From NCBI GenBank assembly GCA_038046625.1, contig JBBSVV010000005.1:7103-50185 (forward strand): a stretch of 43,083 nt of DNA, in the 5' to 3' direction. The stretch's first letter is position 1; the number at the start of each line of letters is the position of its first letter. Made by a program: the position numbers and the translations under genes. The notes beneath the pieces were generated by a model, which made no database searches, was not told where the DNA came from, and worked only from the letters and a program-made list of their open reading frames with translations. Of this stretch, positions 2,841 to 42,783 are shown one piece after another. The DNA comes from an archaeon. Its GTDB lineage: Archaea; Iainarchaeota; Iainarchaeia; Iainarchaeales; Iainarchaeaceae.

Positions 2841-4244
2841 ATGCCGGAAAACCTCTTCAACAAAGTTTGGCAATTACACGAAGTGCAGAAGCTCCCTTCT
2901 GGAGAATCGCAGTTATTCATAGGCCTGCATTTGATTCATGAGGTAACTTCTCCGCAGGCCTTTCAGATGCTCCGGGAACAAAACTTGAAAGTCGCTTTTC
3001 CCGAGCGCACAATAGCCACGGTCGACCACATTGTTCCGACGGCTTCACAAAAAAGGCCTTACTCAGATTCAATGGCCGAAGCAATGATGGGCGAAATAGA
3101 AAAAAACGCGAAACAATTTGGCGTAAGGTTTTACGGAGTTGATTCAGGAAAGCAGGGCATAGTGCATGTGATAGGCCCCGAGCTCGGGCTTACACAGCCA
3201 GGGATGACAATTGCCTGCGGCGACTCGCATACAAGTACGCACGGCGCTTTCGGTGCAATAGCATTCGGCATAGGAACCACGCAGGTCAGGGATGTTCTCG
3301 CGAGCCAATGCATCTCTCTTGCAAAACCCAAAGTCAGGAAAATAGGTGTTTCAGGAAAGCCTGGCAAAGGAGTTTACTCGAAAGACGTGATACTCAAAAT
3401 AATCCAGCAGCTTGGAGTCAAAGGCGGAATAGGCTACTCTTATGAGTATGCCGGCGAAACATTTGAGAACATGAGCATGGAAGAAAGGATGAGCGTCTGC
3501 AACATGAGCATCGAAGGCGGCGCACGCGCGGGATATGTAAACCCTGACAGAACAACTTTTGATTACATGAAAGGAAGGGAGTTTGCTCCAAAAGGGGATG
3601 CATTCGACAGGGCTGTTGAATGGTGGAAGCAAATAGCCTCCGACAAGAATGCAAAGTATGATGATGTTTTCAAATTAAATGTTTCATCGCTCGAGCCAAT
3701 GGTTACATGGGGAATAAATCCCGGGCAGGCCCTCGGGGTAACAGAAAACATTCCAATGCTGAGCGAAGTTCCGGAAAACGAAAGGCAAACAACACAGGAA
3801 GCCCTCACTCATATGGGTTTCAAGGAAGGCGCGCCGATCGAAGGAACAAAAATCGATGTCGCTTTCATAGGCTCCTGCACAAATTCAAGGATTTCCGATT
3901 TGAGGGAGGCAGCAAAAATTGTGGAGGGCCGGAAAGTGAATGCGAACGTGAAGGCGCTCGTTGTTCCGGGTTCGCAACAAGTGAAGGTTCAGGCGGAAAA
4001 GGAAGGCCTCGACAAAATATTTTTGAAAGCGGGCTTTGAGTGGAGGCACGCGGGCTGTTCAATGTGCTTAGCAATGAATCCCGACAAATTGCAGGGGCGG
4101 GAAATTTCGGCTTCATCCTCTAACAGGAATTTCATCGGGCGCCAAGGCTCTTCGACAGGAAGAACGCTCTTAATGAGTCCCGCAATGGTTGCCGCCGCCG
4201 CAATAAATGGGAAAGTTGTTGATGTGCGCGAGGTGCTGCAATGA
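2841..4244 (+). CDS. leuC: 3-isopropylmalate dehydratase large subunit (long, bacterial-type)
   Basis: 467 aa with aconitase-family motifs ([41 protein letters not shown]), followed by leuD. Confidence 0.95.
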
Positions 4245-4335
4245 TTACAGCAAAAGCGAGCGTAGCGAGCCAAAGCTATGCGAAGCATAGGTTGTCGTAC
4301 CCAACAGCCGAAACTGTTGTGCGCGAGGTTTTACA
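4245..4335 (+). repeat. stop/start-bridging intercistronic element, copy A (leuC|leuD)
   Basis: 91-nt insert between genes that would otherwise overlap by ATGA. Hairpins CTATGC-GAA-GCATAG (4276-4290) and CAACAG-CCGAAA-CTGTTG (4302-4319). 26 nt are identical to copy C. The 32-codon mini-ORF 4241-4339 is locked between two ATGA overlaps. Confidence 0.8.
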
Positions 4336-4941
4336 ATGACTGTAATAAATCAAGTTGCAGGCAAGGGTCTCCCGTTGCGCGGAAACGACATTGACACCGA
4401 CAGGATAATTCCCGCACGTTATTTGAAAACAATCACATTTGAAGGTCTCGGAAAATACGCTTTCTATGATGAGCGCTTTGACTCATCCGGAAAACCTAAA
4501 AAGCACGCTTTCAATGACTCGAAATACAAAGGTGCCTCAATCCTCATAGTGAACAAGAACTTCGGCTGCGGCTCCTCGCGCGAACATGCGCCGCAGGCGT
4601 TAATGAAGTTCGGCATAAAAGCCATTGTAGGCGAAAGCTTTGCGGAAATATTTGCGGGCAACTGCCAGTTGCTCGGAATACCAACAGTAACCGCGAGCGC
4701 GGAGGATGTGAAACTCCTGCAGGGCTTTATCGAGAATGATGATTCCAATGAAATCCTCAACCTGAATCTCGAACAAAAAATTCTTTCCTTTAACGATTCT
4801 TCTATTCCAATAGACATTTCCGAAGGAAAAAGAAAAACGCTCGTGAGCGGAACATGGAATACCCTCGGAATGCTTGTAGAGGCACTGCCGAAAACGAAAG
4901 AAACGGCAAAAAAAATCCCTTACCTAAACGGATTCAAATAG
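4336..4941 (+). CDS. leuD: 3-isopropylmalate dehydratase small subunit
   Basis: 201 aa with aconitase swivel-domain motifs (NFGCGSSREHAP) directly after leuC. Confidence 0.95.
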   Translation: MTVINQVAGKGLPLRGNDIDTDRIIPARYLKTITFEGLGKYAFYDERFDSSGKPKKHAFNDSKYKGASILIVNKNFGCGSSREHAPQALMKFGIKAIVGESFAEIFAGNCQLLGIPTVTASAEDVKLLQGFIENDDSNEILNLNLEQKILSFNDSSIPIDISEGKRKTLVSGTWNTLGMLVEALPKTKETAKKIPYLNGFK

Positions 4942-5694: not shown

Positions 5695-5969
5695 ATCGCT
5701 TGGATTTGTCGCCATGGAAACTGCAGTACATTCCAGGTTGGGATCTGCACTTCAAAAAATTCGATAAAAGTGTTCAAGTGCAAATCCTCAAAAAGCTTGA
5801 ACAACTCAAACAGCCCCTTCAGGCAAGAGGGCTGCATTCCTCCCGCTTTCAAGTCGAGGAAACAGGCCAGTACAGAATCGCGCTAAAAATTGACGAAGAA
5901 AACAGGGTAAAGAAAATCCAGTTCATCGGCGACCATAAGCAATACGAAAAATGGTACAAGGAACAATAA
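5691..5969 (+). CDS. RelE/ParE-superfamily-like toxin (TA locus 1)
   Basis: 92 aa with ...YRIALKIDEENRVKKIQFIGDHKQYEKWYKEQ, a RelE-like C-terminal pattern. It is a paralog of 35974-36234 (shared HK.YEKWYK end) and has a 4-nt overlap with the upstream antitoxin. Confidence 0.6.
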   Translation: MNRLDLSPWKLQYIPGWDLHFKKFDKSVQVQILKKLEQLKQPLQARGLHSSRFQVEETGQYRIALKIDEENRVKKIQFIGDHKQYEKWYKEQ

Positions 5970-8103: not shown

Positions 8104-8209
8104 TCTTTTGCCCAAAACATGAATGTTCAGTATACTTTTTATTGGTTGCAGTGTCCTTGACACATCATGCAATCGCATTCGGGTTGCTTTTTCCGGGAAA
8201 AACCTTTTT

Positions 8210-8229
8210 TTGCGCGCAGTGGCGCGCAA
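8210..8229. promoter_or_regulatory. perfect GC-rich palindrome in divergent promoter region
   Basis: TTGCGCGC-AGTG-GCGCGCAA has an 8-bp stem and is preceded by a T-run on the plus strand. It lies between the divergent starts at 8103 and 8290. Confidence 0.3.
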
Positions 8230-8289
8230 CAGCCCCGTGGGATTAAGAATATTAATCACTTTAATGCATGAATGATAAAGTAATCCAAA

Positions 8290-15220: not shown

Positions 15221-16087
15221 TTAATTCACCTTTTTCTGCCCCAGCTTTTTCTGGCTTTCTTTTGCCCCAAGATAGTTCTCCGGCGTAGCCACTTTTTGGA
15301 TGCTTCTCTGTTCAAGTTCTTTGCGGGCTATTCCGGCAACTGTTCCGCCCTCTTTTGCCGCTACTTTGTTCTCAGGAAAACCTTTCGCGTCCCGATTCCT
15401 TGCAATTCTTGTGGTTGAGGCTTCGCCCAGCATTGTGAATATCAGCTCCAAATCCGTCATGTGGTCGCGGAGGTTTTCCCGTTTCAGGTTCTTGAATTTT
15501 TTGTATTCGGCAGGGTTCATGCCGAATGTGGCTTTTGATATTTCTGCGGTAAGAATGGCGTATTCCCTTTCCGTCTTCACTTCCCTTTTCTTCCATTCAT
15601 CTGTCAACTCGTCCCTTACCGCAATGCCTCTTACTCTTTTTTCTATCCATTCATCCGAATAGCCCTTTTCTTTGTATATTTGCCTCATCCTCTTTTGGGC
15701 AAGTTCGGGATTTTCTATCTCCTGCACCCTTTCATAGCCCACTTTTGCAAGCCAGAGCTTGAAGGGCTCCGCTTTTGGCGAAGGAATTGACTGGATAACC
15801 CTGAACGCGCCTTCGGTATTGACGCAATTCGTTTCCCTTTTTTTGCCGTCCGGCGTGGGAAGTTCAAGGGGGGTACAAATTGTACCCCAGTTGGAGTCAA
15901 GAGTAGGGTTCCTGCTTCTCATCTTCTTAATGTATTGTTTTGGGTCGGCGCTGTCGGTTAAAACCGCAATAATGTCGTAAATTGAGAACCACCATTCATT
16001 GTTGTGCCATGTTCTGCGAATATTTCTGCCCTGGAATGCAATCAGAGCATTTGTAGTTTCTGTGCCATTAATTTCTGCCATCGCCAT
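15221..16087 (-). CDS. Bro-N domain / DinD-like (DNA-damage-inducible protein D-like) protein
   Basis: 288 aa. The N-terminal F.G..IR....NEWWFS..DI..VL...DP..Y pattern is typical of the Bro-N fold, and the long helical C-terminus resembles DinD-type proteins. Confidence 0.7.
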   Translation of the reverse strand: MAMAEINGTETTNALIAFQGRNIRRTWHNNEWWFSIYDIIAVLTDSADPKQYIKKMRSRNPTLDSNWGTICTPLELPTPDGKKRETNCVNTEGAFRVIQSIPSPKAEPFKLWLAKVGYERVQEIENPELAQKRMRQIYKEKGYSDEWIEKRVRGIAVRDELTDEWKKREVKTEREYAILTAEISKATFGMNPAEYKKFKNLKRENLRDHMTDLELIFTMLGEASTTRIARNRDAKGFPENKVAAKEGGTVAGIARKELEQRSIQKVATPENYLGAKESQKKLGQKKVN

Positions 16088-16306
16088 TTACCTCATCACA
16101 TTTACAAACTCGAATCCAAGCGTATTGCGTTCGCCAAGCCGCAGTCCAAATGAATTGAATGCTTCAAGTTCTGCGAGGAGTCTTATTTTAATCGCCACCT
16201 TGGAAATAACTGCCAAAAAACAGTTTAAATAGTTGGCGAAGGCTCCTTGCCGGTGCGGAAAGCGTGCTGCGGTTAACGATTTAATTTGATTTTAGGCAAT
16301 TTTAGT

Positions 16307-17515
16307 ATGTTTAACTTTTTGCGCGAGCTTCTTGGCTTCAAGAGGCACCCTGAAAGATATAGTGATTTGAGGAGTTCTAGTTATCTTATAGAATTGCGTT
16401 TAAGCGGTAGAACTAAGACCTATCTGAAAGAGCTCTCTTACCAAATTGCAGAAAAATTTCGTGTGAGAGGCGCGGTTAGGAAGAGGGTTGTGCCTCATGT
16501 TTCTTTATTCGGGCCGTTCAAATCCAATCACGAAAGGGAATTGACCTTAAAGTTTAGTTCAATGTGTAAAAGGCTGGATTTGGTAAAATATAGGCTTAAT
16601 GGTTTTGACCATTTTGAGGATAGGGTAGTGCATGTTCATATTGACCCTTCAACAGAGCTAATCGAGTTTAGAAAGGAGTTGGCGAAATCTCTAATTCCTG
16701 TATGTATTGAAACAAAGCAATATGATTATGTTGATGATTTCAAATTTCATGCTACTTTGGCTTTCAAGGATATTGAAAAAAAATTTGATGCAATTTGGGA
16801 TTACCTCCAAACGCAAGAAACTCCTCTCAAAGAAGAATATGTTTTGAGAATCACGCTTCTCAAGCGAGGGAGAATTCTGAAGGAATATGACCTAATACAA
16901 AGGAGAATGCTCAGCAGAAAGGAAGCGTTGAATAGGGGTGTATGGAAAGAAACTAGGGGTCAGCTTAAAAAAATTAGAGCAAATAATGGAAAAAGAGTAG
17001 TTCAAGAGGTTACGGTTGAAGGCGACCCATATTTCATTAGTGATTTGCACCTTGACCATGCCAACATTATTAGGTATTGCCACAGGCCATTCGAATCAAC
17101 AGAAGAAATGAATGAAACGCTTGTGAATAACTGGAACAATACAATCAAGGATACTGACCAAGTATTTTTTCTCGGTGATATGTCATTTGGAAAGGGTAGC
17201 CGTGGTGCGGATTACTGGATAAAAAAACTGAAAGGCAAAATATATTTTATTAAAGGAAACCATGAAAAAATATATTACAAAAATGCCTTTAATGAACTAA
17301 TATTGAATTGCAAAGGCAAAAAAATCTATCTGGTGCATGACCCATCACATATCCCAAGAGACTGGGTCGGCTGGGCAATACATGGCCATAAACACAACAA
17401 TAGCTTGGTTGAGTTTCCGCTTGTCAATGAAAAAAACAAAACAATAAACGTGAGCTGCGAACTGTTGAATTACACCCCAAAAAGGCTAATTGATATAACA
17501 AAAAACCTAGACTGA
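16307..17515 (+). CDS. fusion of a 2H (LigT-like) phosphoesterase and a calcineurin-like metallophosphoesterase
   Basis: N-terminal half has two H-x-(S/T) motifs (VPHVSLFGPF, FKFHATLAF). C-terminal half has ISDLHLDH, LGDMSFG, KGNHE and IHGHKH. ATG at 16307. Hand-counted 60-nt lines give about 35% GC versus about 50% in the flanking aro genes. Confidence 0.75.
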   Translation: MFNFLRELLGFKRHPERYSDLRSSSYLIELRLSGRTKTYLKELSYQIAEKFRVRGAVRKRVVPHVSLFGPFKSNHERELTLKFSSMCKRLDLVKYRLNGFDHFEDRVVHVHIDPSTELIEFRKELAKSLIPVCIETKQYDYVDDFKFHATLAFKDIEKKFDAIWDYLQTQETPLKEEYVLRITLLKRGRILKEYDLIQRRMLSRKEALNRGVWKETRGQLKKIRANNGKRVVQEVTVEGDPYFISDLHLDHANIIRYCHRPFESTEEMNETLVNNWNNTIKDTDQVFFLGDMSFGKGSRGADYWIKKLKGKIYFIKGNHEKIYYKNAFNELILNCKGKKIYLVHDPSHIPRDWVGWAIHGHKHNNSLVEFPLVNEKNKTINVSCELLNYTPKRLIDITKNLD

Positions 17516-19922: not shown

Positions 19923-21184
19923 TCTTTCCCCTCATAAGCATTTTCGAGTTCCCCGAAAAAATTTGGAAAACTCTTTGAAACAACTTTTTCATCATCAATA
20001 ATCATTCCGCCGGTTTTCAGGCCCAGAACCGAGAATGCCATTGCAATCCTGTGGTCATTAAAAGAATTAATCGCTGTGCCATGCGGTTTTCCGCCGTCAA
20101 TTTCGAGAAAATCCGCGCCATACCTGCACTTCACTCCGCATTTCTCCAGATTTTTCGCCACGCTCTCGATGCGGTTGCTCTCCTTTGCCGCGAGATGAGA
20201 AATTCCCGTTATTTTGGTTTTGCCTTTTGCAACAGCCGCGACAACAGCAATGCTTGGAACAATGTCAGGGCAATCGGCCATGTCAACGCCTATCCCTTTC
20301 ATCGGCTTTCCCTTCACTTCAATAAAATCCTTTCCTTTCTTCAGGGAGCAACCCATTTTCGAAACCAAATCCAAAAACTTTTTGTCCCCCTGGCTCGAGT
20401 AAGGATTCAAGTTATTCACCTTGGCCTTTCCTCCTGTTATTGCTGCGGCCGCAAAAAAATACGAAGCCGAACTGTAATCCCCCTCAATCTCATAATCCTG
20501 TGCCTTGTACATTTCCTTTCCCTTCACAAAAAACTCCGTGTAATCATGGTTCACGCATAAAACACCGAAAGATTTCATGCAGTCAATGGTGATGTCCACA
20601 TAAGGCCCCGATTTCAATTCCCCTGAAACCTTTGCAAGCACGCCCTTTTCCGTGTAAGGCGCCGAAACCAGGATTGCGCTCAAAAACTGCGAACTTTCAG
20701 ATCCCTCAACAATCGTTTTTCCCCCTTCAAGGCCTCCGCCCTTTACCTTTACAGGAAAAGAGCCGTTCTCCGAAGCGGAAGCCTCAGCACCGAGCTTTTC
20801 CAAAGCAGAAACAAGTCCCGAAACAGGCCTCTCCTTGAGCCTCGCATCACCCGTAATCACTGAATTTCCGTTTGCGAGCGCAGCCAAGGGAACGAGAAAG
20901 CGCGCAGTTACCCCTGAATTGCCGACAAAAACCTCTTTGTGCGGAGCAACCAGCTTTCCTGCGGTGCCATGAACTATGAAATCCTTTCCATCAAAATCAA
21001 TGCGTGCGCCGAACAAAGCAAGTGCATTCGCCGCGTGCCTCTGGTCATCCGCATAAAGCGCATTCCGCAAAAAACTTTTTCCATCCGCAAGCGAAGCAAT
21101 GAAAAGAGCCCTCAATGTATGGGCCTTCGATGGAGGCGCATTGAAAACGGCATTCAGCTTTTTCACTGCATCTATTTTCCTCAT
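19919..21184 (-). CDS. aroA: 3-phosphoshikimate 1-carboxyvinyltransferase (EPSP synthase)
   Basis: 421 aa with PPSKAHTLRAL, KESNRI and DHRIAMAF motifs. Confidence 0.95.
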   Translation of the reverse strand: MRKIDAVKKLNAVFNAPPSKAHTLRALFIASLADGKSFLRNALYADDQRHAANALALFGARIDFDGKDFIVHGTAGKLVAPHKEVFVGNSGVTARFLVPLAALANGNSVITGDARLKERPVSGLVSALEKLGAEASASENGSFPVKVKGGGLEGGKTIVEGSESSQFLSAILVSAPYTEKGVLAKVSGELKSGPYVDITIDCMKSFGVLCVNHDYTEFFVKGKEMYKAQDYEIEGDYSSASYFFAAAAITGGKAKVNNLNPYSSQGDKKFLDLVSKMGCSLKKGKDFIEVKGKPMKGIGVDMADCPDIVPSIAVVAAVAKGKTKITGISHLAAKESNRIESVAKNLEKCGVKCRYGADFLEIDGGKPHGTAINSFNDHRIAMAFSVLGLKTGGMIIDDEKVVSKSFPNFFGELENAYEGKE

Positions 21185-21275
21185 TTTCTCACCTCACCGT
21201 TTTCCCTCTTCGAGGACTTCGCGACCGGCGGTACCGACAGCATACCCTTCGGGTACACTTGGCTTCGCACTGCAA
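21185..21275 (-). repeat. stop/start-bridging intercistronic element, copy B (trpA|aroA)
   Basis: 91 nt. Hairpin GTACCC-GAA-GGGTAT (21242-21256) and CCTC-GAA-GAGG (21205-21215). The 32-codon mini-ORF 21181-21279 is bounded by ATGA overlaps, and the 3' end repeats the trpA 3' end (GGTGA..AAATGA). Confidence 0.75.
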
Positions 21276-22091
21276 TCATTTCATCACCGTTGCAGCCTTG
21301 AGTTTCGCGCAAAAATCCTTCAATTCCAAAATCATTGCGCCTTCATTCCCAAGGTTCCTCTCAATCACCGCCTCAATTGCGGAACCCACAATGGCGCCGT
21401 CGGCCCCCGCAGAAATTATTTTCTTCACGTGCTCAGGCATTGAAATCCCGAAGCCGATGCATGCGGGCAACTTTGAATTTTTTTTCACGCGCCCCGCGAG
21501 TTCCAATGCAGAATCCTTTATGTCCTTCCTTTCCCCTGTAACCCCGAGCAGGCCAACCACATACATGAAACCGCCCGCTTTTTTCGAAATTTCCCTTATC
21601 CTCTTGTCGCTTGTCGTGGGGGCAACCATAAAAATCATTTTCAAGCCAATCTCCGTGGCCTCTTTCAATGCTTCGCGTGATTCCTCGATAGGCATGTCAG
21701 CAATGAGAATCCCGTCAACGCCGGCTTCCTTCGCCTTAACCAAAAAATCCTTTACGCCATTCGAGTAGACAAGATTGTAATACAAAAGCAGGCCTATCGG
21801 GATTTCGCTGTTCTTTGCCCTTATGCCTTTTATTATTTCAAAGCACTTGTCCGGGTTGATTCCTGCATCCAATGCGCGCTGGTCCGCAGCCTGGATTCTC
21901 TTTCCATCCGCAATGGGGTCGGAAAAAGGGAAACCGAGCTCGAGAGCATCGGCACTTTCAAGGAGCGTTTCCACGATTTTTTTTGAGGCATTGAAATCAG
22001 GGTCGCCGAGAACCACAAAAGGAATGAATGCGCCTTCATTTTTTCCCCTTAATTTTCCAAACATTTTTCCGTAGCGGTCCATATAATTCAC
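21276..22091 (-). CDS. trpA: tryptophan synthase alpha chain
   Basis: 271 aa with ELGFPFSDPIADG and CIGFGIS motifs. Confidence 0.95.
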   Translation of the reverse strand: MNYMDRYGKMFGKLRGKNEGAFIPFVVLGDPDFNASKKIVETLLESADALELGFPFSDPIADGKRIQAADQRALDAGINPDKCFEIIKGIRAKNSEIPIGLLLYYNLVYSNGVKDFLVKAKEAGVDGILIADMPIEESREALKEATEIGLKMIFMVAPTTSDKRIREISKKAGGFMYVVGLLGVTGERKDIKDSALELAGRVKKNSKLPACIGFGISMPEHVKKIISAGADGAIVGSAIEAVIERNLGNEGAMILELKDFCAKLKAATVMK

Positions 22092-23273
22092 CTATTTGCC
22101 CTCCAGTGCTTTTGCCACGTGCTCGAGGTCCTTGTCGCCCCTTCCGGACAAATTAATTATGACCACGTCCTTTTTCGAGCAGTTCTTCGCGTACTTCAAT
22201 GCATACGCAACGGCGTGGCTCGACTCCAATGCAGGAATAATCCCTTCCTTTTCGGAAAGCAATTTGAATGCGGCGAGCGCCTCGGTATCCGTCGCGTAAA
22301 AATACTTCGCCCTCTTCAAATCGCGCAGCATCGCGTGCTCCGGCCCCACGGCGGAATAGTCAAGGCCAGCGGAAATCGAGTGCGTGTTGTAAATCTGGCC
22401 GAACCTGTCCTGCAATACATAAGTGAGGGTTCCATGCAATACTCCTTTGCGCCCAAGCTTCGGGTCGGCAAAACGAGCGGCATGCTTTCCGCTTTCGATT
22501 CCCATTCCGCCTGCCTCAACCCCGATGAGTTCCACTTTCTTGTCCTTCACGAACTCCCTGAAAATCCCTATTGCGTTGCTCCCGCCGCCGACACACGCAA
22601 TAATGGCTTTCGGCAGCTTCCCCTCTTTTTTAAGGATTTGCTTTCTTGCCTCTTTCCCTATTACGCTCTGGAAATGCGCAACCATGGATGGGTAAGGGTG
22701 CGGCCCCAAAACAGAACCAAGGAGATAATGGGTATCCTGAACATTCGCTGTCCAGTCGCGTAGCGCCTCATTTATCGCGTCCTTCAATGTTTTGCTTCCG
22801 CTCGAAACAGGAATCACTTTTGCGCCGGCCAATTTCATCCTGAAAACATTGGGCCTCTGCCTTTCAATGTCAACCTCACCCATGTAAATCTCGCATTTCA
22901 GGCCAAGTTTTGCGCACGCAATGGCAGTGGCAACTCCGTGCTGCCCCGCGCCTGTTTCCGCGATGATTCTTTTTTTGCCCATGTACTTCGCGAGCAAAGC
23001 CTGCCCAAGGGCGTTGTTGATTTTATGCGCCCCGGTATGCGCAAGATCCTCACGCTTTAAATAAATTCTGCATCCGAGTTCCCTGCTCAACTCAGAGGCG
23101 AAAGTCAACGGAGTAGGCCTTCCAACAAAACTCGCGAGCAATTCATTAAGTTCCGCATTGAATTTTTTGTCCTTGCGGGACTTTTCAAATGCCGCTTCGA
23201 GTTCCTTCACTGCGGGCATCAGTGTTTCAGGGACAAACTGGCCGCCGTAAGAACCGAACATCCCCTTCCTCAT
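22092..23273 (-). CDS. trpB: tryptophan synthase beta chain
   Basis: 393 aa with HTGAHKINN and GGGSNAIG motifs. Confidence 0.95.
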
Positions 23274-24655
23274 TTTTTACCCACCGCACTTTGAATGAAT
23301 TCCCTCATTTTCGCGTAATTTTTTACGCCCGGCCTCGCTTCCGTGGCGGAGCAAACATCGACAATTACAGGATTGAACTCCTTAATAATCCGTTTCACGT
23401 TTCCCGCATTCAGGCCCCCGGAAAAAATCAGCTTCGTGGAATTAATTTTTACATTTTGCAAAAATTTTTCGTTAATTTGCGTTCCGGTTCCGCCAAACAG
23501 GCCTTTGGAGGGTGCGTCAAGCATTATGAAGTCAGCGCGGAAACTTTTTGCCTTTGCAATGCTGCCTTTATCCTCGACATGAACGGCTTTAATTACTGGC
23601 AATCCAATGCCATTGATTTCACTCGGCTTTTCATTGCCTGAAAACTGCGCCAAATCCAGGCCGACGCGCTTCGCAATTTTCCTCACTTTATTTTTGCCCT
23701 CGTTCACAAAAACCCCTGCAACAAGCGCCTTTCCTTTCACCCTGTGCGCAATTTTTTTCGCCAGCCCAATTGAAACAAACCTCGGGCTCTTGGGGTAGAA
23801 GTTCAGCCCAATCAGGTCGGCCCCGAGTTTCACCGCATCCATTGCGTCCTTTTCGCTTGTGATGCCGCAAATCTTCACAAGGGTTTTTCCGGATAATTCC
23901 TTCAGCTTCACGCGCGGAACCGGAAAGGACATTATGGCTGTCCCGACAAGTATTGCGTCCGCAATTCCTTTGAGCGAGTCAACCTGCCGCCTTGAATTGA
24001 TTGCGGATTCGGAAACAAGAACAATTTTATTTCTCCTGCCTTTCGGTATTTTTTTTGCCAGCCTTGCGGTAACGGCAAAATCTTCCCTCAGCGTGGCGAG
24101 GTTCCGGTTGTTTATGCCTATTATTTTGGCATTCGTGCGCAGGATTTTTTTCAGCCCCGAAAAGGAATCGCATTCAACCAAACAATCCATTCCGAGCGAA
24201 TCCGCAACTTCAATGAACTCGCCGATCTGCTTTTCCGTAAGGATATTCGCAATCAAAAGGATTGCATCTGCCCCGTAATGCCTCGCCTCGAAAATCTGGT
24301 AAGCATCAACAATGAAATCCTTGCGCAGCAAAGGCTTTTTCGTGAATCTGCGCGCGCCCTTCAAAAAATCCAGAGAACCGGAAAAATGCTTCTCTTCGGT
24401 AAGAATCGAAATCGCATCGGCGTACTCATCATAAAGTCGCATGAATTCCGCGAGCGAAGCGGATTTGTTTATGCTCCCCCTTGAGGGAGAGCTCTTCTTG
24501 AATTCCCCAATGAGCTTCATTTCCCATTTTTTCCCCAATGCCTTGAGGAATGAATGCGATGCCTTGCGGATTTTCATCCTCGTAACGGGAAAGCTCTTTT
24601 TTCTGTGCCTAACTTCCGCGAGCTTTTCCTTCCTTACTTTCTCAAGGAAATTCAT
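23270..24655 (-). CDS. trpCF: fused indole-3-glycerol-phosphate synthase / phosphoribosylanthranilate isomerase
   Basis: 461 aa. The N-terminal half is TrpC-like ([19 protein letters not shown]). The C-terminal half is TrpF-like ([30 protein letters not shown]). Confidence 0.9.
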
Positions 24656-25665
24656 GCGCGCGACTCCTTCACGAGCAATTCAAGCTTCTCAAGAGCTTTT
24701 CCAGAATCAATGCTTTTTCTCGCAAGTTCAATCCCTTCCTTTATAGAACCAGCCTTTCCGTTCGCAAAAATCGCGATGCCGGCATTAAGGAGTATTGTGT
24801 CGCGCTTCGCGCCCTTTTCTTTTCCGGAAAGAATGCCCCTGATAACTTGCGCCGATTCCTTTGCATCCGCAACAACCAGCTCTTTTGGAATGCACCCGGC
24901 AAGGCCAAGCTCTTTCGGCAAAAATTCCTTCTTCTGCACTTTTCCGTTCTCGACAATGAAAGCAACATTTTTTCCCGTAAGTGTGGCCTCATCATAGCCG
25001 TTGCCGTTTATCACAACGGCTTTTTTTGTGCCAAGGCCCGCAAGCACAAACGCGAGTTTTTCCGCAAGTTCCGCGCTGTAAACCCCCAAAAGGAAAGTGT
25101 TTGCCCCGGCAGGATTCGTAATGGGCCCCAGGATGTTGAAAATGGTCCTAATCCCTATTTCCTTTCTCGGAACCGCGGCGTATTTCATTGCCGGGTGGTG
25201 CTTCTGTGCAAACATGAAAACTATGCCTATTTTTGAAAGTATTTCCGAGTTGCGCTCCGCGTCATTGTCAATTTTCGCTCCGAGCGCCTCGAGCACATCG
25301 GCCGCGCCGCTCCTGCTCGAAACACTTCGGTTGCCGTGCTTCGCAACAACACAACCAGCACCCGCACACACAAACGCGCTTGCCGTAGAAATGTTGAAGC
25401 TGGATTTTCCGTCCCCGCCCGTGCCCACAACATCCAGAAGGTCGGCCTTTCCCTTGTAAGATACTTTTGCGGCAACGCCCCTCATTGATTCGGCCGCGCC
25501 CTGAATCTCCTCAATCGATTCCCCTTTCATCCTCAATGCGGTTATGAGAGACGCAATCTGCGAGTCAGTTGCCCTGCCCTGCATGATTTCGTCAAAAGTT
25601 TCCTTCGCCTCGGCTCTGGAAAGATTTTTCCCGTCAACAATTTTTCCAATCGCTTCCTTAATCAT
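24652..25665 (-). CDS. trpD: anthranilate phosphoribosyltransferase
   Basis: 337 aa with VGTGGDGKSSFNISTA and KHGNRSVSS motifs. Confidence 0.95.
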   Translation of the reverse strand: MIKEAIGKIVDGKNLSRAEAKETFDEIMQGRATDSQIASLITALRMKGESIEEIQGAAESMRGVAAKVSYKGKADLLDVVGTGGDGKSSFNISTASAFVCAGAGCVVAKHGNRSVSSRSGAADVLEALGAKIDNDAERNSEILSKIGIVFMFAQKHHPAMKYAAVPRKEIGIRTIFNILGPITNPAGANTFLLGVYSAELAEKLAFVLAGLGTKKAVVINGNGYDEATLTGKNVAFIVENGKVQKKEFLPKELGLAGCIPKELVVADAKESAQVIRGILSGKEKGAKRDTILLNAGIAIFANGKAGSIKEGIELARKSIDSGKALEKLELLVKESRA

Positions 25666-26249
25666 TTTTTTGCCCCCTTGGCCATTTTCATTACGTTCTC
25701 AATCATTAATCCGCCTTCAGGCGTAAGAATGCTTTCAGGGTGGAACTGCACACCGAAAGAAACGTGCTTTTTGTGCCGCACACCCATAATAATTCCTGAT
25801 TCGCTTTTCGCCGTGACTTCCAGAACACCGGGAATCTTTTCCCCGGCAAGAGAGTGGTAACGGCCGGCCTGAAAAGGGTTCGAAAGCCCCTGAAAAATCC
25901 CTTTTCCGTCATGGGAAACCATTGAAGGCTTTCCGTGGATGGTTTCAACGGCCTTTCCGACCTTTCCGCCGAACGCCTCAATCATTGCCTGCTCACCCAG
26001 GCAAACGCCGAACAAAGGAATTTTTCCGGAATACTCTTTAATGACTGGCATGCTGTTTCCGGCATTTGCGGGATTTGAAGGCCCCGGAGAAATCACAATC
26101 AAATCAGGCCCGAACCCGGAAATTATTTCCCTGATTTTTTTCATCGGAACATCATTCCTGTAAACCTCGACCCTGCAGCCGCGCTTCTCGAACTCTTCGA
26201 CCAAATTATAAGTGAACGAATCGAAATTATCAAGGAAAAATACCTTCAC
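25662..26249 (-). CDS. trpG: anthranilate synthase component II (glutamine amidotransferase)
   Basis: The conserved domain starts at (V/M)KVFFLDNFDSFTYNL with GTG at 26249, and carries GVCLGEQ and HPES motifs. The ORF stays open upstream to the ATG at 26387 through element D, giving a 46-aa non-homologous extension. Confidence 0.85.
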   Translation of the reverse strand: MKVFFLDNFDSFTYNLVEEFEKRGCRVEVYRNDVPMKKIREIISGFGPDLIVISPGPSNPANAGNSMPVIKEYSGKIPLFGVCLGEQAMIEAFGGKVGKAVETIHGKPSMVSHDGKGIFQGLSNPFQAGRYHSLAGEKIPGVLEVTAKSESGIIMGVRHKKHVSFGVQFHPESILTPEGGLMIENVMKMAKGAKK

Positions 26250-26383
26250 AACCCTTTCGCCGGTTCGCCCTAGCGGGTGCAGGGGGAGCGACTGCCCCTG
26301 CTCCTTGTACCCGTAGGGTACGAGGCCTCGCGGAATCTTTGGATTCTGCAAGGTCGCAGGGCCATGGCTCACTTTGTTCGCAA
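26250..26383 (-). repeat. stop/start-bridging intercistronic element, copy D (trpE|trpG), in frame with trpG
   Basis: 134 nt. Hairpins at 26333-26346 (GAATC/GATTC), 26307-26321 (GTACCC-NNN-GGGTAC) and 26279-26301 (GCAGGGG/CCCCTGC). It starts ATGATTGCG overlapping the trpE TGA. Confidence 0.7.
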
Positions 26384-27985
26384 TCATTCCAAACCCTCCG
26401 CGATTTCAATTGCCCTCAATGCCGCTTTCGCCTTTTTCTCGGTTTCCTCGAACTCCTTCTCAGGAACCGAATCGAACACAATGCCGGCTCCGGCTCTCAC
26501 ATAAGCCCTTCCTTTCTGCAGGGACATGCTCCTTATGACAATTGCGGAATCAAAGTCGCCTGAAGGCGTCAAGTAGCCTATGCTTCCTCCGTAAAACCCG
26601 CGCCTGGTCTTTTCATGCAGGCGTATCAGCTTCATTGCCTCTACCTTCGGCGCCCCAGTTAAGGTCCCCATGTTCATGGATGCGAGGTAAGCGTGCAGCG
26701 CATCCAAGTCGCTTTTCAGAATTCCTGAAACATTGCTCATGAGGTGCTGGACATGAGAGTACTTCTCAATCATGTAAGGCCTGTCACAATGCCTGGTTCC
26801 CGGTTCGCACACGCGCGCAACGTCATTGCGCGCCAAATCAATGAGCATCGTGTGCTCCGCCATTTCCTTCTCATCATTCTTCAATTCCGCTTCATAGCGT
26901 GAATCCAAATCCAAATCTATTTTCCCGTTTATTATGCCTCTCGGTTTTGTTCCCGCAATCGGCCGTATCTCAACTTTTTTCCTTTCGTCCCCTTCCACTT
27001 TGAGGAAGGTTTCGGGGCTGCTCCCCAAAAGTATTCCGGAACTGTTGTTGAAGTAGAACATGTAAGGGCTCGGGTTTAATTCGCGCAGGGCATTGTAAAT
27101 GTCCAGCGGTTCCGCCGAGTATGCCGCAATCATTGTCCTTGAAGGCACAACCTGGAAAACATCGCCAATGAGAACGTGCTTCTTGAGCCTCTCAACCATC
27201 GCGACAAACTCCTTCTTTGGTGTGTCGCTCGAAATCGATATTTTCTTTTTTTTATGGGGCTTCGGCTTCGGGGCAGTGGCGTCCAGCATTTTCCTGTATC
27301 CGTCAATTACTTCTGTGCACCTTTTTTCCTCGCTTTCCATGTCTTTTTCCGAAAAAATCAGCGCGTTGCACACAAAGCTTATTTCGTTTTTTTTGTGTTC
27401 GACAATGAAAAGGTTGTCGTAAAAATTCATTTCATAATCGGGCTCCTTCAGGACATCCTTCCTGTTCTTCGGGAGCTCCTCGAAATTGTCTATGAAATCA
27501 TACCCGATTGCGCCGATCAGGCCGCCGTACATGACAAAGGGCTTGTATGCGGGCTTCAGCCTGAATGCTATTGCGCGAAGCACATCCGCATGCGTTTTTC
27601 TCTTCAGCCTTTCCGATTCGCTCACCGTGCCCTTGTCAATTTTTATGCTTCCGGAAATTTTGTCCGCAGTGATTTTCAATCCGGAGCAGAAATCAAGGGA
27701 ATGGGCGATTTCTTTGAGGAATTTCCCGCCGGTTTCGCTGAGCGCAATCACCTCGAACCTTTCTCCTTTTCCGCGCGCCTTGAGGCAGGGCTCCGCGCTC
27801 CCGATGCTCTTTTCACCGTACTTTGTAACCACGTCGGCGCTTTCAAGCAAAACACAGTTCTTTTTTCTGCCGTAATCCGAGATTTTCGCGAAGAAATCGC
27901 AGGCGTTTCCGCTGAAAGGCATTGTTTCGTACAGCGGGACAATGCTTCCCGGCCTTGACTTCAATAGTTCTTCCGTGCCTTTCAT
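26384..27985 (-). CDS. trpE: anthranilate synthase component I
   Basis: About 533 aa from the ATG at 27985 (MKGTEELLK), with a C-terminal chorismate-binding domain (GAGIVFDSVPEKEFEETE). The track ORF extension to 28099 reads into the tRNA gene. Confidence 0.9.
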   Translation of the reverse strand: MKGTEELLKSRPGSIVPLYETMPFSGNACDFFAKISDYGRKKNCVLLESADVVTKYGEKSIGSAEPCLKARGKGERFEVIALSETGGKFLKEIAHSLDFCSGLKITADKISGSIKIDKGTVSESERLKRKTHADVLRAIAFRLKPAYKPFVMYGGLIGAIGYDFIDNFEELPKNRKDVLKEPDYEMNFYDNLFIVEHKKNEISFVCNALIFSEKDMESEEKRCTEVIDGYRKMLDATAPKPKPHKKKKISISSDTPKKEFVAMVERLKKHVLIGDVFQVVPSRTMIAAYSAEPLDIYNALRELNPSPYMFYFNNSSGILLGSSPETFLKVEGDERKKVEIRPIAGTKPRGIINGKIDLDLDSRYEAELKNDEKEMAEHTMLIDLARNDVARVCEPGTRHCDRPYMIEKYSHVQHLMSNVSGILKSDLDALHAYLASMNMGTLTGAPKVEAMKLIRLHEKTRRGFYGGSIGYLTPSGDFDSAIVIRSMSLQKGRAYVRAGAGIVFDSVPEKEFEETEKKAKAALRAIEIAEGLE

Positions 27986-28038
27986 AAAAACCACAAAACC
28001 GCGCTTCGGCGCCTCTTTCTTTTTGGTACAGCTTTTTC

Positions 28039-28058
28039 CTTTCTCTGCAAAGAGAAAG
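28039..28058 (-). promoter_or_regulatory. hairpin in the tRNA-Trp to trpE spacer
   Basis: Minus-strand CTTTCTC-TTTGCA-GAGAAAG has a 7-bp stem flanked by T5 and A5 that can extend it. It lies immediately 3' of the tRNA. Confidence 0.4.
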
Positions 28059-28069
28059 AAAAAGGTGTG

Positions 28070-28142
28070 TGGAGACAGAGGGATTTGAACCCCCATCAAT
28101 CGGTCTGGAGCCGATTACACTACCAGGTTATGCTATGTCTCC
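28070..28142 (-). tRNA. tRNA-Trp (anticodon CCA)
   Basis: Folded by hand. Acceptor GGAGACA/TGTCTCC, anticodon stem ATCGG/CCGAT with loop CTCCAGA, T-arm GGGGG-TTCAAAT-CCCTC, discriminator A73, no encoded CCA. G1-C72 plus A73 is the archaeal/eukaryal Trp identity set. Confidence 0.9.
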
Positions 28143-39462: not shown

Positions 39463-41147
39463 TTGAAATAATCCTTGCCTATCTTTTCTCCCCTCATTTC
39501 ACTGTTCGAGGCGCCGGCCGGCACAATCGGCAGGACAATCGCATCAGCCTTCACATGCACATTGATTATGGAAGTCTCGTCATTCTTCATCGCTTCCTGC
39601 AGCGCAGGCGCAATCTCCGAGTGCCTTTCAACAGTCAGTCCCTTGAGCGAATACGCCTGCGCGACCTTCTCGAAGTCAGGGATTTTTCCAAGCAAAACCT
39701 GGCTCCTCCTTCCCTCGTAAAACATGTCATTCCACGCGCGCACCATTCCCAGGTAACCGTTGTTCATGATTACATTAATGACTTTGACCTTGTTCACTTT
39801 CGCAGTCGCGAGCTCCTGCATAGTCATTACAAAAGAACCGTCGCCGTCAACATTGAAGACCTCCATGTCAGGGCAGGCAAATTTCGCGCCGATTGCCGCG
39901 GGAAACCCGAAACCCATTGTGCCAAGGCCTCCGGAAGTGATGAATTTTCTCGGCTTCGAGAACTTTATGAAGTGCGCAACATCCATCTGGTGCTCCCCGA
40001 CTCCAGTGGTCACGATCGTGTCATCCGTAAAAACCTTCTGAAGCTCGAACATCAATTTGCGCGGGTCAATGGGATTGGAATCAATGTTAATGTCCTCCGC
40101 ATACTCCTTCCGCATTACCTTCAGTTTTTCGTTCCACGCCTTGTTCTTCCACTGCATTTTCCTCACAATGCGCAGCATTTCCCCGAGAACCTCTTTTGCA
40201 TTCCCGAGTATTCCAAGCTGGGCTTTGCGGTTCTTGTGTATCTCGCTCGGGTCAATCTCAATGTGAATTACTTTTGCCTCCGGCGCAAACCCGCTCAAGT
40301 TTCCTGTTACGCGGTCGTCAAACCTTATTCCAATTGTAAAGAGCACATCACATTTCTGGATGGCATAAACCGCGGGAGGCTGGCCATGCATTCCAGTCAT
40401 GCCGAGCGAGAGAGGATGCCTTTCATCAAAAACCCCCTTGCCAGCTAGGGTGGTTGCAACCATTATATTGCATGTTTCCGCAAGCTCTTTAATCTCGTTG
40501 TGGCAGTTCGCGTGAACCGCGCCCCCTCCTGCAAGAAGCACGGGCCTTTGCGCCTCAAGCAGCATTCTGGACGCTTCCTTGATTGCTTCGGCATCAAAAC
40601 CGTTGATTACCTTATAACCCTTCAGCTTCACTTCTTTTTTTTCAGTAACCTCCTTTTGCTGCACATCCTTAGGCAACTCAATGTAAACCGGGCCCGGCCT
40701 GTTTGTCGAGGCAATGAAATAAGCCGCATCCACAATGCCGTCAATTTCGTTCGGGTCGGTAATCTGGAAATTGTGCTTCGTGATAGGCGTAGTAATTCCC
40801 ATCAAATCCGCTTCCTGGAACGCATCCTTTCCAATGAGGCTTGTGATAACCTGCCCGCCGATTGCAACCATGGGCACGGAATCCATGAACGCGTCCGCAA
40901 TACCCGTAACGAGATTTGTCGCGCCCGGGCCCGAAGTCCCGAGGCAAGTGCCTACCCTTCCCGAGGACTTTGCATAGCCCTCAGCCATGTGCGCGCCCCC
41001 CTGTTCGTGCCTCACGAGGATGTGCCTGAAAGAATTGTCCCTGTAAATTTCGTCATAAAAAGGAATCACGACCCCGCCGGGAATCCCGAACAGGCAGTCA
41101 ACGCCGTTCCTTTTCAGCGCCTCGAGAAAAACCTTTGCGCCCTTCAT
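39459..41147 (-). CDS. ilvB: acetolactate synthase large subunit
   Basis: 562 aa ThDP enzyme with GGLGTMGFGFPAAIGA and GDGSF motifs. Confidence 0.95.
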   Translation of the reverse strand: MKGAKVFLEALKRNGVDCLFGIPGGVVIPFYDEIYRDNSFRHILVRHEQGGAHMAEGYAKSSGRVGTCLGTSGPGATNLVTGIADAFMDSVPMVAIGGQVITSLIGKDAFQEADLMGITTPITKHNFQITDPNEIDGIVDAAYFIASTNRPGPVYIELPKDVQQKEVTEKKEVKLKGYKVINGFDAEAIKEASRMLLEAQRPVLLAGGGAVHANCHNEIKELAETCNIMVATTLAGKGVFDERHPLSLGMTGMHGQPPAVYAIQKCDVLFTIGIRFDDRVTGNLSGFAPEAKVIHIEIDPSEIHKNRKAQLGILGNAKEVLGEMLRIVRKMQWKNKAWNEKLKVMRKEYAEDINIDSNPIDPRKLMFELQKVFTDDTIVTTGVGEHQMDVAHFIKFSKPRKFITSGGLGTMGFGFPAAIGAKFACPDMEVFNVDGDGSFVMTMQELATAKVNKVKVINVIMNNGYLGMVRAWNDMFYEGRRSQVLLGKIPDFEKVAQAYSLKGLTVERHSEIAPALQEAMKNDETSIINVHVKADAIVLPIVPAGASNSEMRGEKIGKDYFK

Positions 41148-41226
41148 TCTACCGCCTCAACAGTTTCGGCTGTTGGGTACGACGGCGTACCCTTCGGGTA
41201 CACCTGACCTAACTTGCCTGCAAATC
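41148..41226 (-). repeat. stop/start-bridging intercistronic element, copy C (leuA|ilvB)
   Basis: 79 nt. Hairpins at 41187-41201 (GTACCC-GAA-GGGTAC in sense) and 41158-41175 (CAACAG-CCGAAA-CTGTTG). 26 nt are identical to copy A. The 28-codon mini-ORF 41144-41230 runs from a TTGA start overlap to an ATGA stop overlap. Confidence 0.8.
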
Positions 41227-42783
41227 TCAATTTATCGCCCTCTTTTCATTATTATGGTTCGCCATAGCCTTGTTAAGGCATTTGATAAGCGCCTGTGCAG
41301 AGGCCATTGCAATGTCCTCCTTCAATGCCTCGGCAGTGAAAGAACTGCCATTCGAATCCGTGATGGTTATTGTGACGTCCGCAAGCGCATCCGTGCCCCC
41401 GGTAATTGCCTTCAAGTTGTAGTCCTTTAACCTGAATTCTTTGCCTACCGCCCTTATTATCGCGTTCGCCATCGCATCAACCGGGCCGACACCCTCTGCC
41501 TTTGCGGCAACTTCCATGCCCTTGACGCTCAGCCTCACGCTTGCAACCGGCTTCACCTTGTTCCCCGTGCTGATTGTTATTTCCTCCAGCTTCACAAGAA
41601 CCTTTTCCGGCGAGAGCCTGTCGGCAATATTGTTCGCAATCGCAATTATGTCCTCCTCGAAAATGATTTTATTTTTGTCCGCGAGCGCCTTCATTTTGTC
41701 CGTGACATCCTGAACCTCCTTATTGCTCATGGAGTAGCCGCGCTTTTTCAGGAAATCCGCAACGGCCGCCTTTCCGGAATGCTTTCCAATCACGAGCTCG
41801 GTTGTTTTGCCAATGGTTAAAGGATTCATAATCTCGTAAACCTCGCGGTTCGCGAGGATTCCATGCTGGTGAATTCCGGCTTCATGCGCGAACGCATTCC
41901 TGCCGACAATGGCCTTGTTCGCCTGCACAACCATTGAAGTGAAGCCCGAAACCATTTTGCTCGTGTTGTAAATTTCATCCAGTTTTATGTTTGTGGTGGC
42001 ATTGAAATAATTCTCGCGCGCATGAAGGTTCATTATGACTTCTTCGAGCGCGGCATTTCCGGCCCTTTCCCCTATTCCGTTAATTGTGCCCTCGACCTGC
42101 GTGGCGCCGTTCTCGATGGCGGCGAGGCTGTTTGCAACGCTCAAACCAAGGTCATCGTGGCAGTGCGTGGAAATGGTTATTGATTCATTGTAATTCGGCG
42201 TGTTCGCAATAATGTCCTTAATCAGCGAACCGAATTCCTTTGGCTGCGTGTAACCGACAGTATCAGGAATGTTCAGAGTGGTTGCACCCGCATCAATTGC
42301 TTTTTCAAGCACATCATACAAAAATTCCTTTTCGCTCCTGCCCGCATCCTCCGGAGAAAATTCTATGTCCTCACAATAATTCTTTGCGTACCTCACCCAC
42401 TTCTCCGCCTCCGCCTTGACTTGAGCGGGTTCCATGTGCAGCTTGTACTTCATGTGTATCGGCGATGTCGCCAAAAAAACGTGGATGCGCGGCTTCTTCG
42501 CGGACTCGATTGCCTTGAAAGCCCTGTCAATGTCCTCCTTCCTGCACCTCGCGAGCGCGCACACAACCGGCTTGGAAAGGGTTTTGGCAATCTCCTTCAC
42601 CGCAATAAAATCATCATCGCTCGCAACCGGAAACCCGGCCTCGATGATGTCCACATTGAGGCGCTCGAGCTGGCGCGCAATCATTATTTTTTCTTTATGA
42701 GTAAGAGTTGCCCCCGGGCTCTGTTCGCCGTCACGAAGGGTCGTGTCGAAAATTTTTATCATTTTCTTTCCGCCTTCAGCCAT
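41227..42783 (-). CDS. leuA: 2-isopropylmalate synthase (long form with C-terminal LeuA regulatory domain)
   Basis: About 518 aa with [11 protein letters not shown] and HCHDDLGL motifs. ATG at 42783 (the track TTG at 42786; an ATG at 42762 is also possible). Confidence 0.95.

Follow-up and report, generated by a model that had tools for sequence, protein, structure and literature searches.

Overlapping stop and start codons are the commonest type of gene junction in prokaryotes and provide the basis of translational coupling. This article deals with one such junction, that between trpE and trpG, in a 43,083-nucleotide (nt) stretch of DNA from an uncultured DPANN archaeon (GenBank contig JBBSVV010000005.1; hereafter the window, meaning the whole stretch, which appears as WIN in the locus lists, related loci being designated by L-numbers such as L002). 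At this junction an insert of 138 nt, referred to as D, separates the end of trpE from the conserved beginning of TrpG, and its 46 codons are open and in frame with trpG. The question raised by the locus is what kind of sequence this insert is, whether it is translated as part of TrpG, and how a strongly folded insert is accommodated between two coupled genes. Taken together, the evidence described below makes it fairly probable that D is a lineage-specific insertion of a folded repeat of non-coding type which is read through into TrpG.

Reading Frame and Lineage Specificity of the TrpG Extension

The ATG that overlaps the trpE TGA had been predicted to read without a stop into the conserved TrpG start, and both the frame and the coordinates were confirmed: 46 stop-free codons (26387-26250) run from ATG 26387 into GTG 26249, continue as VKVFFLDNFDSFTYNL and reach the trpG stop, giving an open reading frame (ORF) of 241 aa (25662-26387; Table 1). 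Since an identical 241-aa TrpG product is found on at least three assembled contigs, the insert is not an artefact of one assembly, and an assembly error was ruled out as the origin of the extension. The assignment of the core to TrpG relies on the PF00117 domain on record, the invariant Cys of GVCLG and the His and Glu of HPE in the alignment, and the position beside trpE and trpD.

That the extension is lineage-specific, as had been anticipated, is borne out by comparison with other TrpG proteins. The 120 best TrpG homologues, mostly 187-223 aa long, cover only about 75-83% of the query and none of them has the extension; likewise, N-terminal residues homologous to the 46 were found in none of 25 aligned relatives. 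Judged from these alignments, the extension is not a genuine feature of TrpG orthologues. In an AlphaFold2 model residues 1-46 have a predicted local distance difference test (pLDDT) score of 37-53 and form no secondary structure, while pLDDT exceeds 80 from residue 48, the first strand of the confident core; the extension is thus predicted to be disordered. If produced, it should release the tryptic peptides VSHGPATLQNPK, GLVPYGYK and EQGQSLPLHPLGR together with the junction peptide VVK/VFFLDNFDSFTYNLVEEFEK, and the short form would begin with (M)KVFFLDNF.

The spacing of the junction was measured in nt from the TrpE anchor AIExAE to the TrpG anchor DNFDSF at 71 junctions in related loci. About 59 of them have a distance of 17-57 nt, corresponding to a plain Shine-Dalgarno (SD) sequence with an ATGA overlap or near overlap; the window has 164 nt, and L002, L004 and L005, which are the closest relatives with contigs, have 179-202 nt. 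As an observation apart, TrpG of L188 (about 5595-5813) carries an N-terminal extension of ~65 residues that starts from an ATGA overlap, is Lys/Ala/Pro-rich and of low complexity, and is not hairpin-like.

Predicted RNA Structure of the Insert

The 121-nt interior of D (26263-26383) folds with a free energy of -55.9 kcal/mol (z = -4.83), and none of 200 shuffled sequences was as stable. The three hairpins described in the original prediction were recovered by the fold, and an additional outer stem encloses them in a closed multiloop (Table 1). One of these hairpins contains the palindrome GTACCC-NNN-GGGTAC (GTACCCNNNGGGTAC, with at most one mismatch), which occurs three times in the window (26307, 21242 and 41187) vs 0.02 expected. 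The palindrome had been said to be as in two other elements of the window, copies B and C (see below), and it is present in all three; however, GTACCC of D aligns with the linker TCGTACCC of copies A and C and not with hairpin 1 of B and C. This linker is read as S-Y-P (TCG TAC CC) in copies A and C and as L-V-P (C TCG TAC CC) in D.

Among the Rfam covariance models only tRNA-Trp reached the gathering score in the window, and nothing meaningful was found at E <=1 over copies D or A. Several known classes of element were also considered and rejected: a C/D-box sRNA (no consistent C/D boxes), an integron attC site (the context does not fit, and each locus has flanking repeats of its own), a tRNA-like element (ARAGORN reports tRNA-Trp only) and an intein or bulge-helix-bulge intron (a length of 46 aa does not suffice, and the position is that of a gene junction).

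A Repeat Family at Stop/Start Overlaps

D has counterparts at other gene junctions. In the window these are copies A, B and C, and further copies occur in four related loci (Table 1). A metagenome scan was made with a clade-specific alignment of 25 residues, as the full TrpG alignment contained universal motifs and, in a scan of genome contigs, returned almost only bacterial loci. Aligned copies share a common layout, in which NTGA is followed by TT(G/A)C..GCGA(A/G)..GAGCC(A)AG, hairpin 1 (often closed by C-GAA-G), a linker (T)CGTACCC or CCGCACCC, hairpin 2 with the loop [ACG]CG[ACG]A[AG], and finally the duplicated target. Pairing in hairpin 2 amounts to 95.8% over eight distinct copies, with compensatory changes in each of its six pairs, and none of 500 shuffles reached the co-variation score. 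Copies were detected by motif and BLAST searches; indels between the copies kept the family from being recovered by a search for direct repeats over the whole window, and a profile hidden Markov model found no copies beyond its training set and none in about 15 kb of extra flanking genome. The hairpin-2 motif also gave 75 matches in viral contigs, all of them chance matches inside phage coding sequence.

Six copies (copy A, L002, both L004 copies, L086 and L177) are flanked by significant direct duplications (0/2000 shuffles each) of 16, 20, 20, 22, 25 and 47 nt, the content of which is the local SD and ATGA sequence. The clearest case is the trpE|trpG junction of L004, where a 137-nt insert made of two perfect 66-nt tandem units lies between two copies of GGGGGCGGGAAAATGAAT. 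L167, with about 80% nucleotide identity to L004 in the flanking coding sequence, is insert-free and has a single GGGGGCGGGAAAATGAA(C) vs two in L004, its alignment to L004 overlapping by 18 nt at the junction. The two loci provide a direct comparison of a filled and an empty site with a target duplication. The trpB|trpA junction of L004 (10176-10282) reads as a chain of TTGA, a 27-codon ORF, ATGA, an 8-codon ORF (MKFLGRKI*) and ATGA. The sequence MKFLGRKI* matches the C-termini of TrpB in relatives and is the displaced original TrpB tail, TrpB now ending in the element-encoded RHLNER; the site of entry was an internal ATGA lying 23 nt short of the true junction.

Within this subclade the trpE|trpG junction has received inserts repeatedly. 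Stand-alone ORFs, of 50 codons in L002 and 52 in L004, form ATGA overlaps with trpE at one end and trpG at the other, L193 has a bridging ORF, and L005 carries its insert as a fusion to the C-terminus of TrpE (579 aa). In L177 the aroA|aroK copy is fused in frame to the N-terminus of AroK, MTVLPSTSEVDAHLTDATVKR being joined to NVALIGFRGTGKT, which constitutes a second case of the D type. The idea of a bridging element, put forward in the original prediction, is well supported by the double-overlap ORFs of L002 and L004 and by the fusions in L005 and L177. The trpE|trpG inserts of D, L002, L004 and L005 are mutually unalignable by BLAST apart from short motifs.

Other observations were made around these junctions. 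In L214 (about 9925-9975) trpE and trpG are linked through two ATGA overlaps by a mini-ORF of 8 codons, ATGAAAAAAAAACAGGTGAAAAAATGA, which has no hairpin and looks like a bare junction duplication. The same locus has a family copy, GTCCTATCGAGCCAAAGCGAGATGGACGCGGATCATGCGGACGCAATCGCA, at about 8085-8131, immediately 5' of tRNA-Trp instead of between two genes, so that members of the family also occur away from ATGA overlaps. Finally, ORFs of 135 and 150 aa lacking a Pfam match are wedged in the operons of L086 (14236-14643) and L089 (19384-19836), one between trpB and trpA, overlapping both, the other between aroE and aroC with an ATGA overlap.

D resembles these elements in several respects. 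It starts right after the trpE ATGA in sense orientation, a position shared with copies A, B and C and with those of L002, L004, L086 and L177; it carries ATGATTGCGAAC, GAGCCA and an exact TCGTACCC in the order of the family; and its frame is open from a start that overlaps the upstream stop, as an in-frame fusion like the aroK copy of L177. Within the window the linker TCGTACCC is confined to copies A, C and D, with three occurrences vs 0.29 expected. The 5' end of D was thought to be the same as in copies A and B: the octamer ATGATTGC is indeed shared with copy B at 21279, but copy A reads ATGATTAC at 4241. This octamer is only mildly enriched in the window (9 occurrences vs 2.6 expected), and its occurrence at 18311, perhaps what was earlier called copy A, is not an element but simply the aroD start within the aroB/aroD overlap. 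The membership of D in the family thus rests on position, order of modules and two short motifs.

Openness and Phase of the Junction Copies

All nine tabulated junction copies are open from a start that overlaps the upstream stop; the second L177 copy, the fusion to AroK, is a tenth and was left outside this table. The chance of openness per copy ranges from 0.10 to 0.70 in shuffles, and simple multiplication gives about 5e-6 over the nine copies and about 2.5e-4 over the six that were found by motif, BLAST or spacer length and not through ORF calls, products that overstate independence as the copies are partly related by descent. Most family members are separate small ORFs of 27-52 codons that overlap the stop of one neighbour and the start of the other. 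A scan for small ORFs starting from NTGA was swamped by antisense ORFs and was replaced by a survey of the spacers between greedy gene calls; among the same-strand spacers in about 0.87 Mb of related loci, no closed, strongly folded within-operon spacer of this kind was found.

The phase of the copies is consistent with this pattern. A distance of 2 mod 3 between successive ATG codons is what a stop overlapping the next start needs, and a two-sided bridging ORF therefore requires it. Seven of the nine copies have such distances (95, 95, 83, 149, 155, 80 and 104 nt), as does the mini-ORF of L004 (23 nt). The exceptions are the L086 copy (76 nt), which ends 5 nt past the next ATG, and D itself (138 nt), which is 0 mod 3 and in frame. 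The original prediction derived the fusion from a change of the downstream ATGA of an ancestral bridging copy to GTGA. A GTG does stand at the ancestral position of the trpG start, but this change alone would not fuse the frames, a two-sided bridging ORF being 2 mod 3 and D 0 mod 3. The D frame that ends at the retained TGA now carries two stops, and the open frame at the linker (L-V-P) differs from the canonical one of the family (S-Y-P); at least one further frame change must have taken place. Loss of one codon could turn ..GGAATGA into ..GTGA at the 3' end of D.

Initiation at trpG and a Proposed Mechanism

Two start codons come into question for trpG. ATG 26387 is preceded by an SD-like GGAGGG (Table 1), and the operon-internal starts of the window in general have GGAGG-like motifs 4-8 nt upstream. 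GTG 26249 has only AGG(G) as its nearest SD-like motif, with a spacer of 2-3 nt. As ATG 26387 combines a canonical SD with a position on the trpE stop and no stop downstream, and the SD of the GTG is weak, the extended TrpG is somewhat favoured by the sequence over independent initiation at the GTG, and translation would start at ATG 26387. In Haloferax volcanii and Escherichia coli an untranslated spacer of about 20 nt nearly abolishes termination-reinitiation coupling (PMC10666635), which needs overlaps (PMC10666635; PMC6728339). Only translated inserts would be tolerated at such junctions for this reason.

A mechanism can be proposed on these grounds. Members of the family, apparently mobile and present in multiple copies, would land immediately 3' of NTGA and duplicate 16-47 nt of the local SD and ATGA sequence, and only ribosome-readable forms would persist. 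Because an element that copies the SD and start codon and stays open leaves the next gene accessible to ribosomes, its insertion even into essential operons could be nearly harmless. Selection would then act on the passage of ribosomes and not on the peptide. In its usual form the element would be a relay ORF overlapping both neighbours, so that termination-reinitiation coupling is passed on twice. In D the downstream restart signal would have decayed (ATG to GTG, with an SD 2-3 nt away), leaving a frame continuous with trpG. A ribosome terminating at the trpE TGA would sit on ATG 26387, restart there (GGAGGG, 7-nt spacer) and unwind the three hairpins while translating, and every restart at this ATG would yield TrpG with a 46-residue disordered, repeat-encoded tail. 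Decay of one junction would accordingly produce either an N-terminal tail (TrpG here, AroK in L177) or a C-terminal tail (TrpE in L005). The long and variable duplications, if they do arise on insertion, would imply a process unlike known prokaryotic transposition, for example template switching or target-primed copying. The broader reading, in which selfish structured elements specialised for NTGA overlaps are translationally transparent, decay into new protein tails and insert by a novel mechanism, is more tentative, its chances falling a little short of even.

If true, this would describe a concrete route from non-coding repeats to protein termini, linkers and possibly gene fusions. For annotation, the family would account for odd 'genes' of 30-50 aa (copy A is recorded by gene callers as a 32-aa gene) and for unexplained N- and C-terminal extensions in biosynthetic operons of DPANN archaea. 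It also predicts an anthranilate synthase glutaminase subunit that has a 46-residue disordered tail of repeat origin.

Weighing the Alternatives

Several results weigh against the reading of D as a family member read through into TrpG. Canonical hairpin 2 was not found in D by regular-expression search, although it is present in copies A and C and in L004, L177 and L214, and imperfectly in L086 and L002; D has instead hairpins II and III and the outer stem, and its interior is unique. An nhmmer search with the A5 family profile recovered every training copy but not D (E >10), and by BLAST D shares only short motifs with the other copies. The flanking repeat of D, AGGGTT..TGA, is not above chance either. 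Its resemblance to the trpE end, noted in the original prediction, is visible by eye and amounts to 15 of 21 positions when the last 21 nt are read codon-wise with a one-codon gap, but shuffling gives P about 0.47, vs P <0.0005 for each of the six other copies; the segment 26246-26266 would be the remnant of a target duplication, an interpretation that is not statistically supported. About 25% of shuffles likewise leave the D frame open (P about 0.25), and D has a second open frame. GTG 26249 lies outside the folded core, so that independent initiation there would not be structurally blocked. The hairpins of D are nearly perfect despite the decayed flanking repeat, which hints at selection on structure, a feature left unexplained if D is a tolerated passenger. 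As regards mobility, no transposase gene lay in the about 58 kb of source genome read, no TnpA, TnpB or RAYT gene was seen in the window or the loci examined, and no other mobilising gene was found; a variable duplication length fits no standard transposition chemistry. The partial common descent of the copies, mentioned above, belongs here as well. Taken alone, the openness and the flanking repeat of D are unremarkable; what lends D significance is the family, together with the evidence from relatives. The best reading is that D would be an older, divergent member of the family with a decayed downstream restart signal.

The alternative that survives best, unlikely as it is, regards D as a structured intercistronic RNA that is not translated, for example a stabiliser or a processing site of the operon transcript, with TrpG starting at GTG 26249 and the open frame being a coincidence in G+C-rich sequence. 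The chance openness of the frame and of a second one, the very stable and nearly perfect structure, and the location of GTG 26249, aligned with orthologue starts and outside the folded core, all agree with it, and bacterial intercistronic hairpin repeats that act on mRNA stability (REP/BIME, ERIC) are well known (PMC10969869; PMC3184786). It is opposed by the start signals. A weak SD lies too near the GTG; the upstream ATG, placed on the trpE stop with a canonical SD and no stop behind it, would give the extended protein at every restart, and ribosomes elongating in the same frame would suppress internal initiation. In addition, all the other junction copies are open and, as counted here, correctly phased, which an element acting at the RNA level would not need.

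Far less probable is that the 46 residues form a functional segment, such as a tether or a TrpE-TrpG interaction arm, maintained by selection on the peptide. The intact frame would be expected, TrpE and TrpG do form a heteromeric enzyme, and the junction tolerates a C-terminal extension of TrpE (L005) and other N-terminal extensions of TrpG (L188, L182); yet the segment lacks a homologue, disorder is predicted for it, its composition is what a G+C-rich hairpin would encode, and the features shared between copies are nucleotide motifs read in different frames. Least probable of all is that a regulatory RNA dedicated to trp, such as an attenuator or a tryptophan or tRNA-Trp sensor, tunes the TrpE:TrpG ratio, which would suit the occupied trpE|trpG junctions of WIN, L002, L004 and L005, the tRNA-Trp gene and conserved hairpin that precede trpE in the clade and the strong fold z-score, but is contradicted by the lack of homology among these inserts, by the recent insertion of one of them, its site being empty in a close relative, by the presence of the family also at leuC|leuD, leuA|ilvB, trpA|aroA, trpG|trpD, trpB|trpA and aroA|aroK and upstream of a tRNA, by the roughly 59 of 71 relatives that are insert-free, and by the missing Rfam match.

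Genomic Setting

The top TrpG matches are labelled DPANN, Diapherotrites, Woesearchaeota or 'archaeon', and sequence beside the window codes for an archaeal histone-fold protein and a Hef-like helicase-nuclease. The same sequence is recorded as contig CAYIOV010000001.1 (76,284 nt) of GCA_964365115.1 and in ENA ERZ1292636 contigs from Hainich groundwater. trpE and trpG belong to a minus-strand operon for aromatic amino acids in the order tRNA-Trp, trpE, trpG, trpD, trpCF, trpB, trpA, aroA, aroK, aroB, aroD. The mechanically called trpE ORF extends to 28099 but overlaps the tRNA-Trp gene; TrpE of relatives is 535-537 aa long, close to the 533 aa given by the probable start in Table 1. trpC and trpF are one fused gene of 461 aa (IGPS and PRAI domains; 23270-24655, minus strand), as in relatives.

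tRNA-Trp(CCA) (28069-28142, minus strand) is located directly upstream of trpE on the same strand, both here and in six related loci (Table 1); its linkage to the trp operon is conserved. The stretch between it and the probable trpE start ATG 27985 (27986-28068, minus strand) contains a pyrimidine/purine hairpin, CTTTTTCTTTCTCT-TTGC-AGAGAAAGGAAAAAG, with T-runs GGTTTTGTGGTTTTTATG after it, and comparable hairpins lie 3' of the tRNA in L004 and L214. This hairpin ahead of trpE could be a terminator or an attenuator. Elsewhere in the window, a mechanically called ORF of 762 aa (6343-8631, minus strand) has no Pfam match and is called as 586 aa on the source contigs. Just downstream of the aromatic operon, a protein that combines 2',5' RNA ligase-like and metallophosphatase domains adjoins one with a Bro-N domain (16286-17515, plus strand, and 15221-16087, minus strand), Bro-N domains being usually viral or mobile.

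Table 1. Features of the trpE-trpG junction, copies of the repeat family and associated genes. Positions are those of the window unless a related locus is named.
Feature	Position	Strand	Remarks
trpE coding sequence	26384..27985	-	probable start ATG 27985, 533 aa; Pfam Chorismate_bind on record
Shine-Dalgarno-like GGAGGG for ATG 26387	26394..26399	-	spacer 6-7 nt; matches other operon-internal starts
ATGA overlap	26384..26387	-	trpE stop TGA 26386-26384 and ATG 26387-26385 of extended trpG
Insert D	26250..26387	-	138 nt, 46 codons (MIANKVSHGPATLQNPKIPRGLVPYGYKEQGQSLPLHPLGRTGERV); open, in frame with trpG, lineage-specific
5' module ATGATTGCGAAC...GAGCCA	26365..26387	-	counterparts: ATGATTGCAGTGCGAAGCCA in copy B, GCGAGCCAAAG in copy A, TTGATTGCGAAGCA in L004
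Closed multiloop	26267..26362	-	outer stem GCCCTGCG/CGC(T)AGGGC around three hairpins
Hairpin I	26326..26353	-	CCTTGC-A-GAATC CAAA GATTC-C-GCGAGG
Hairpin II	26303..26325	-	CCT-C-GTACCC TAC GGGTAC-A-AGG, holding linker TCGTACCC at 26316-26323
Hairpin III	26279..26301	-	GCAGGGG CAGTCGCTC CCCCTGC
Possible decayed copy of the trpE 3' end	26246..26266	-	GAA CCG GCG AAA GGG TTG TGA vs GAA ATC GCG GAG GGT TTG GAA TGA
GTG at ancestral trpG start position	26247..26249	-	aligned with orthologue starts, e.g. MKILLIDNF
TrpG core, glutamine amidotransferase	25662..26249	-	stop overlaps trpD ATG 25665
Copy A, leuC|leuD	4241..4339	+	32-codon ORF, ATGA at both ends; 25-nt flanking duplication, 21/25 identical
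Copy B, trpA|aroA	21181..21279	-	32-codon ORF, ATGA at both ends
Copy C, leuA|ilvB	41144..41230	-	28-codon ORF, TTGA to ATGA; 26 identical nt with copy A
Copies in relatives			L004 trpB|trpA; L086 trpG|trpD; L177 trpG|trpD and aroA|aroK; L214 directly 5' of tRNA-Trp
tRNA-Trp in relatives	L004 3999-4071, L086 8236-8309, L089 8212-8284, L177 3774-3847, L214 8132-8206, L174 8178-8252

Comparison With Known Systems

[quoted passage not shown] The parallel with RPEs drawn in the original prediction holds for the fused forms, which like RPEs are small palindromic repeats tolerated in translated sequence that place repeat-encoded residues on unrelated metabolic proteins (PMC10969869). It does not extend to membership. 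RPEs sit within ORFs of a bacterial genus and have a conserved peptide per family, whereas the elements described here are archaeal, lie between genes on stop/start overlaps, usually form a separate ORF, and are conserved at the level of nucleotides and hairpins, the shared motifs being read in different frames; fusion, as in D, L177 and L005, is secondary.

Like REP/BIME, ERIC/IRU, Correia and BOX/RUP elements, the copies are multi-copy, strongly folded, orientation-biased, co-transcribed in operons and modular or mosaic (PMC3184786; PMC10969869). Those bacterial repeats are located in untranslated spacers after stops, whereas the present copies are read through and come with a duplication of 16-47 nt of their target. 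Bacterial intercistronic repeats are not known to stay open for translation or to regenerate the SD and start codon of the next gene.

IS200/IS605 elements have hairpin-rich ends and insert 3' of a specific tetra- or pentanucleotide, without target duplication. The family shares with these hairpin elements and their miniature derivatives (PATEs, REPINs) the hairpin-rich ends lacking long terminal inverted repeats, the single orientation and the position 3' of a short motif, here NTGA; it differs from them in the clear, long and variable duplications that flank six copies. Archaeal MITEs (Sulfolobus, Halobacterium) are likewise short, non-coding and multi-copy, with presence/absence polymorphism and a flanking direct repeat. 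Terminal inverted repeats were not seen by eye in the aligned copies, no dedicated inverted-repeat search having been made, and unlike in MITEs the duplication is not of fixed length (16-47 nt vs the 2-11 nt typical of MITEs) and stop/start overlaps are targeted.

A functional likeness exists with the synthetic bicistronic design (BCD), in which a short, efficiently translated leader ORF ends on the next start and carries the SD inside it, and the helicase activity of the ribosome removes structure and delivers ribosomes to that start (bioRxiv 10.1101/2023.02.09.527918; PMC5995908). BCDs are engineered and are placed 5' of one gene, whereas the elements of this family are natural and lie between coupled genes, and in D the two cistrons have merged. 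If the proposed reading is true, a repeat family settled on coupled junctions would represent a natural experiment on translational coupling and a natural counterpart of the BCD.

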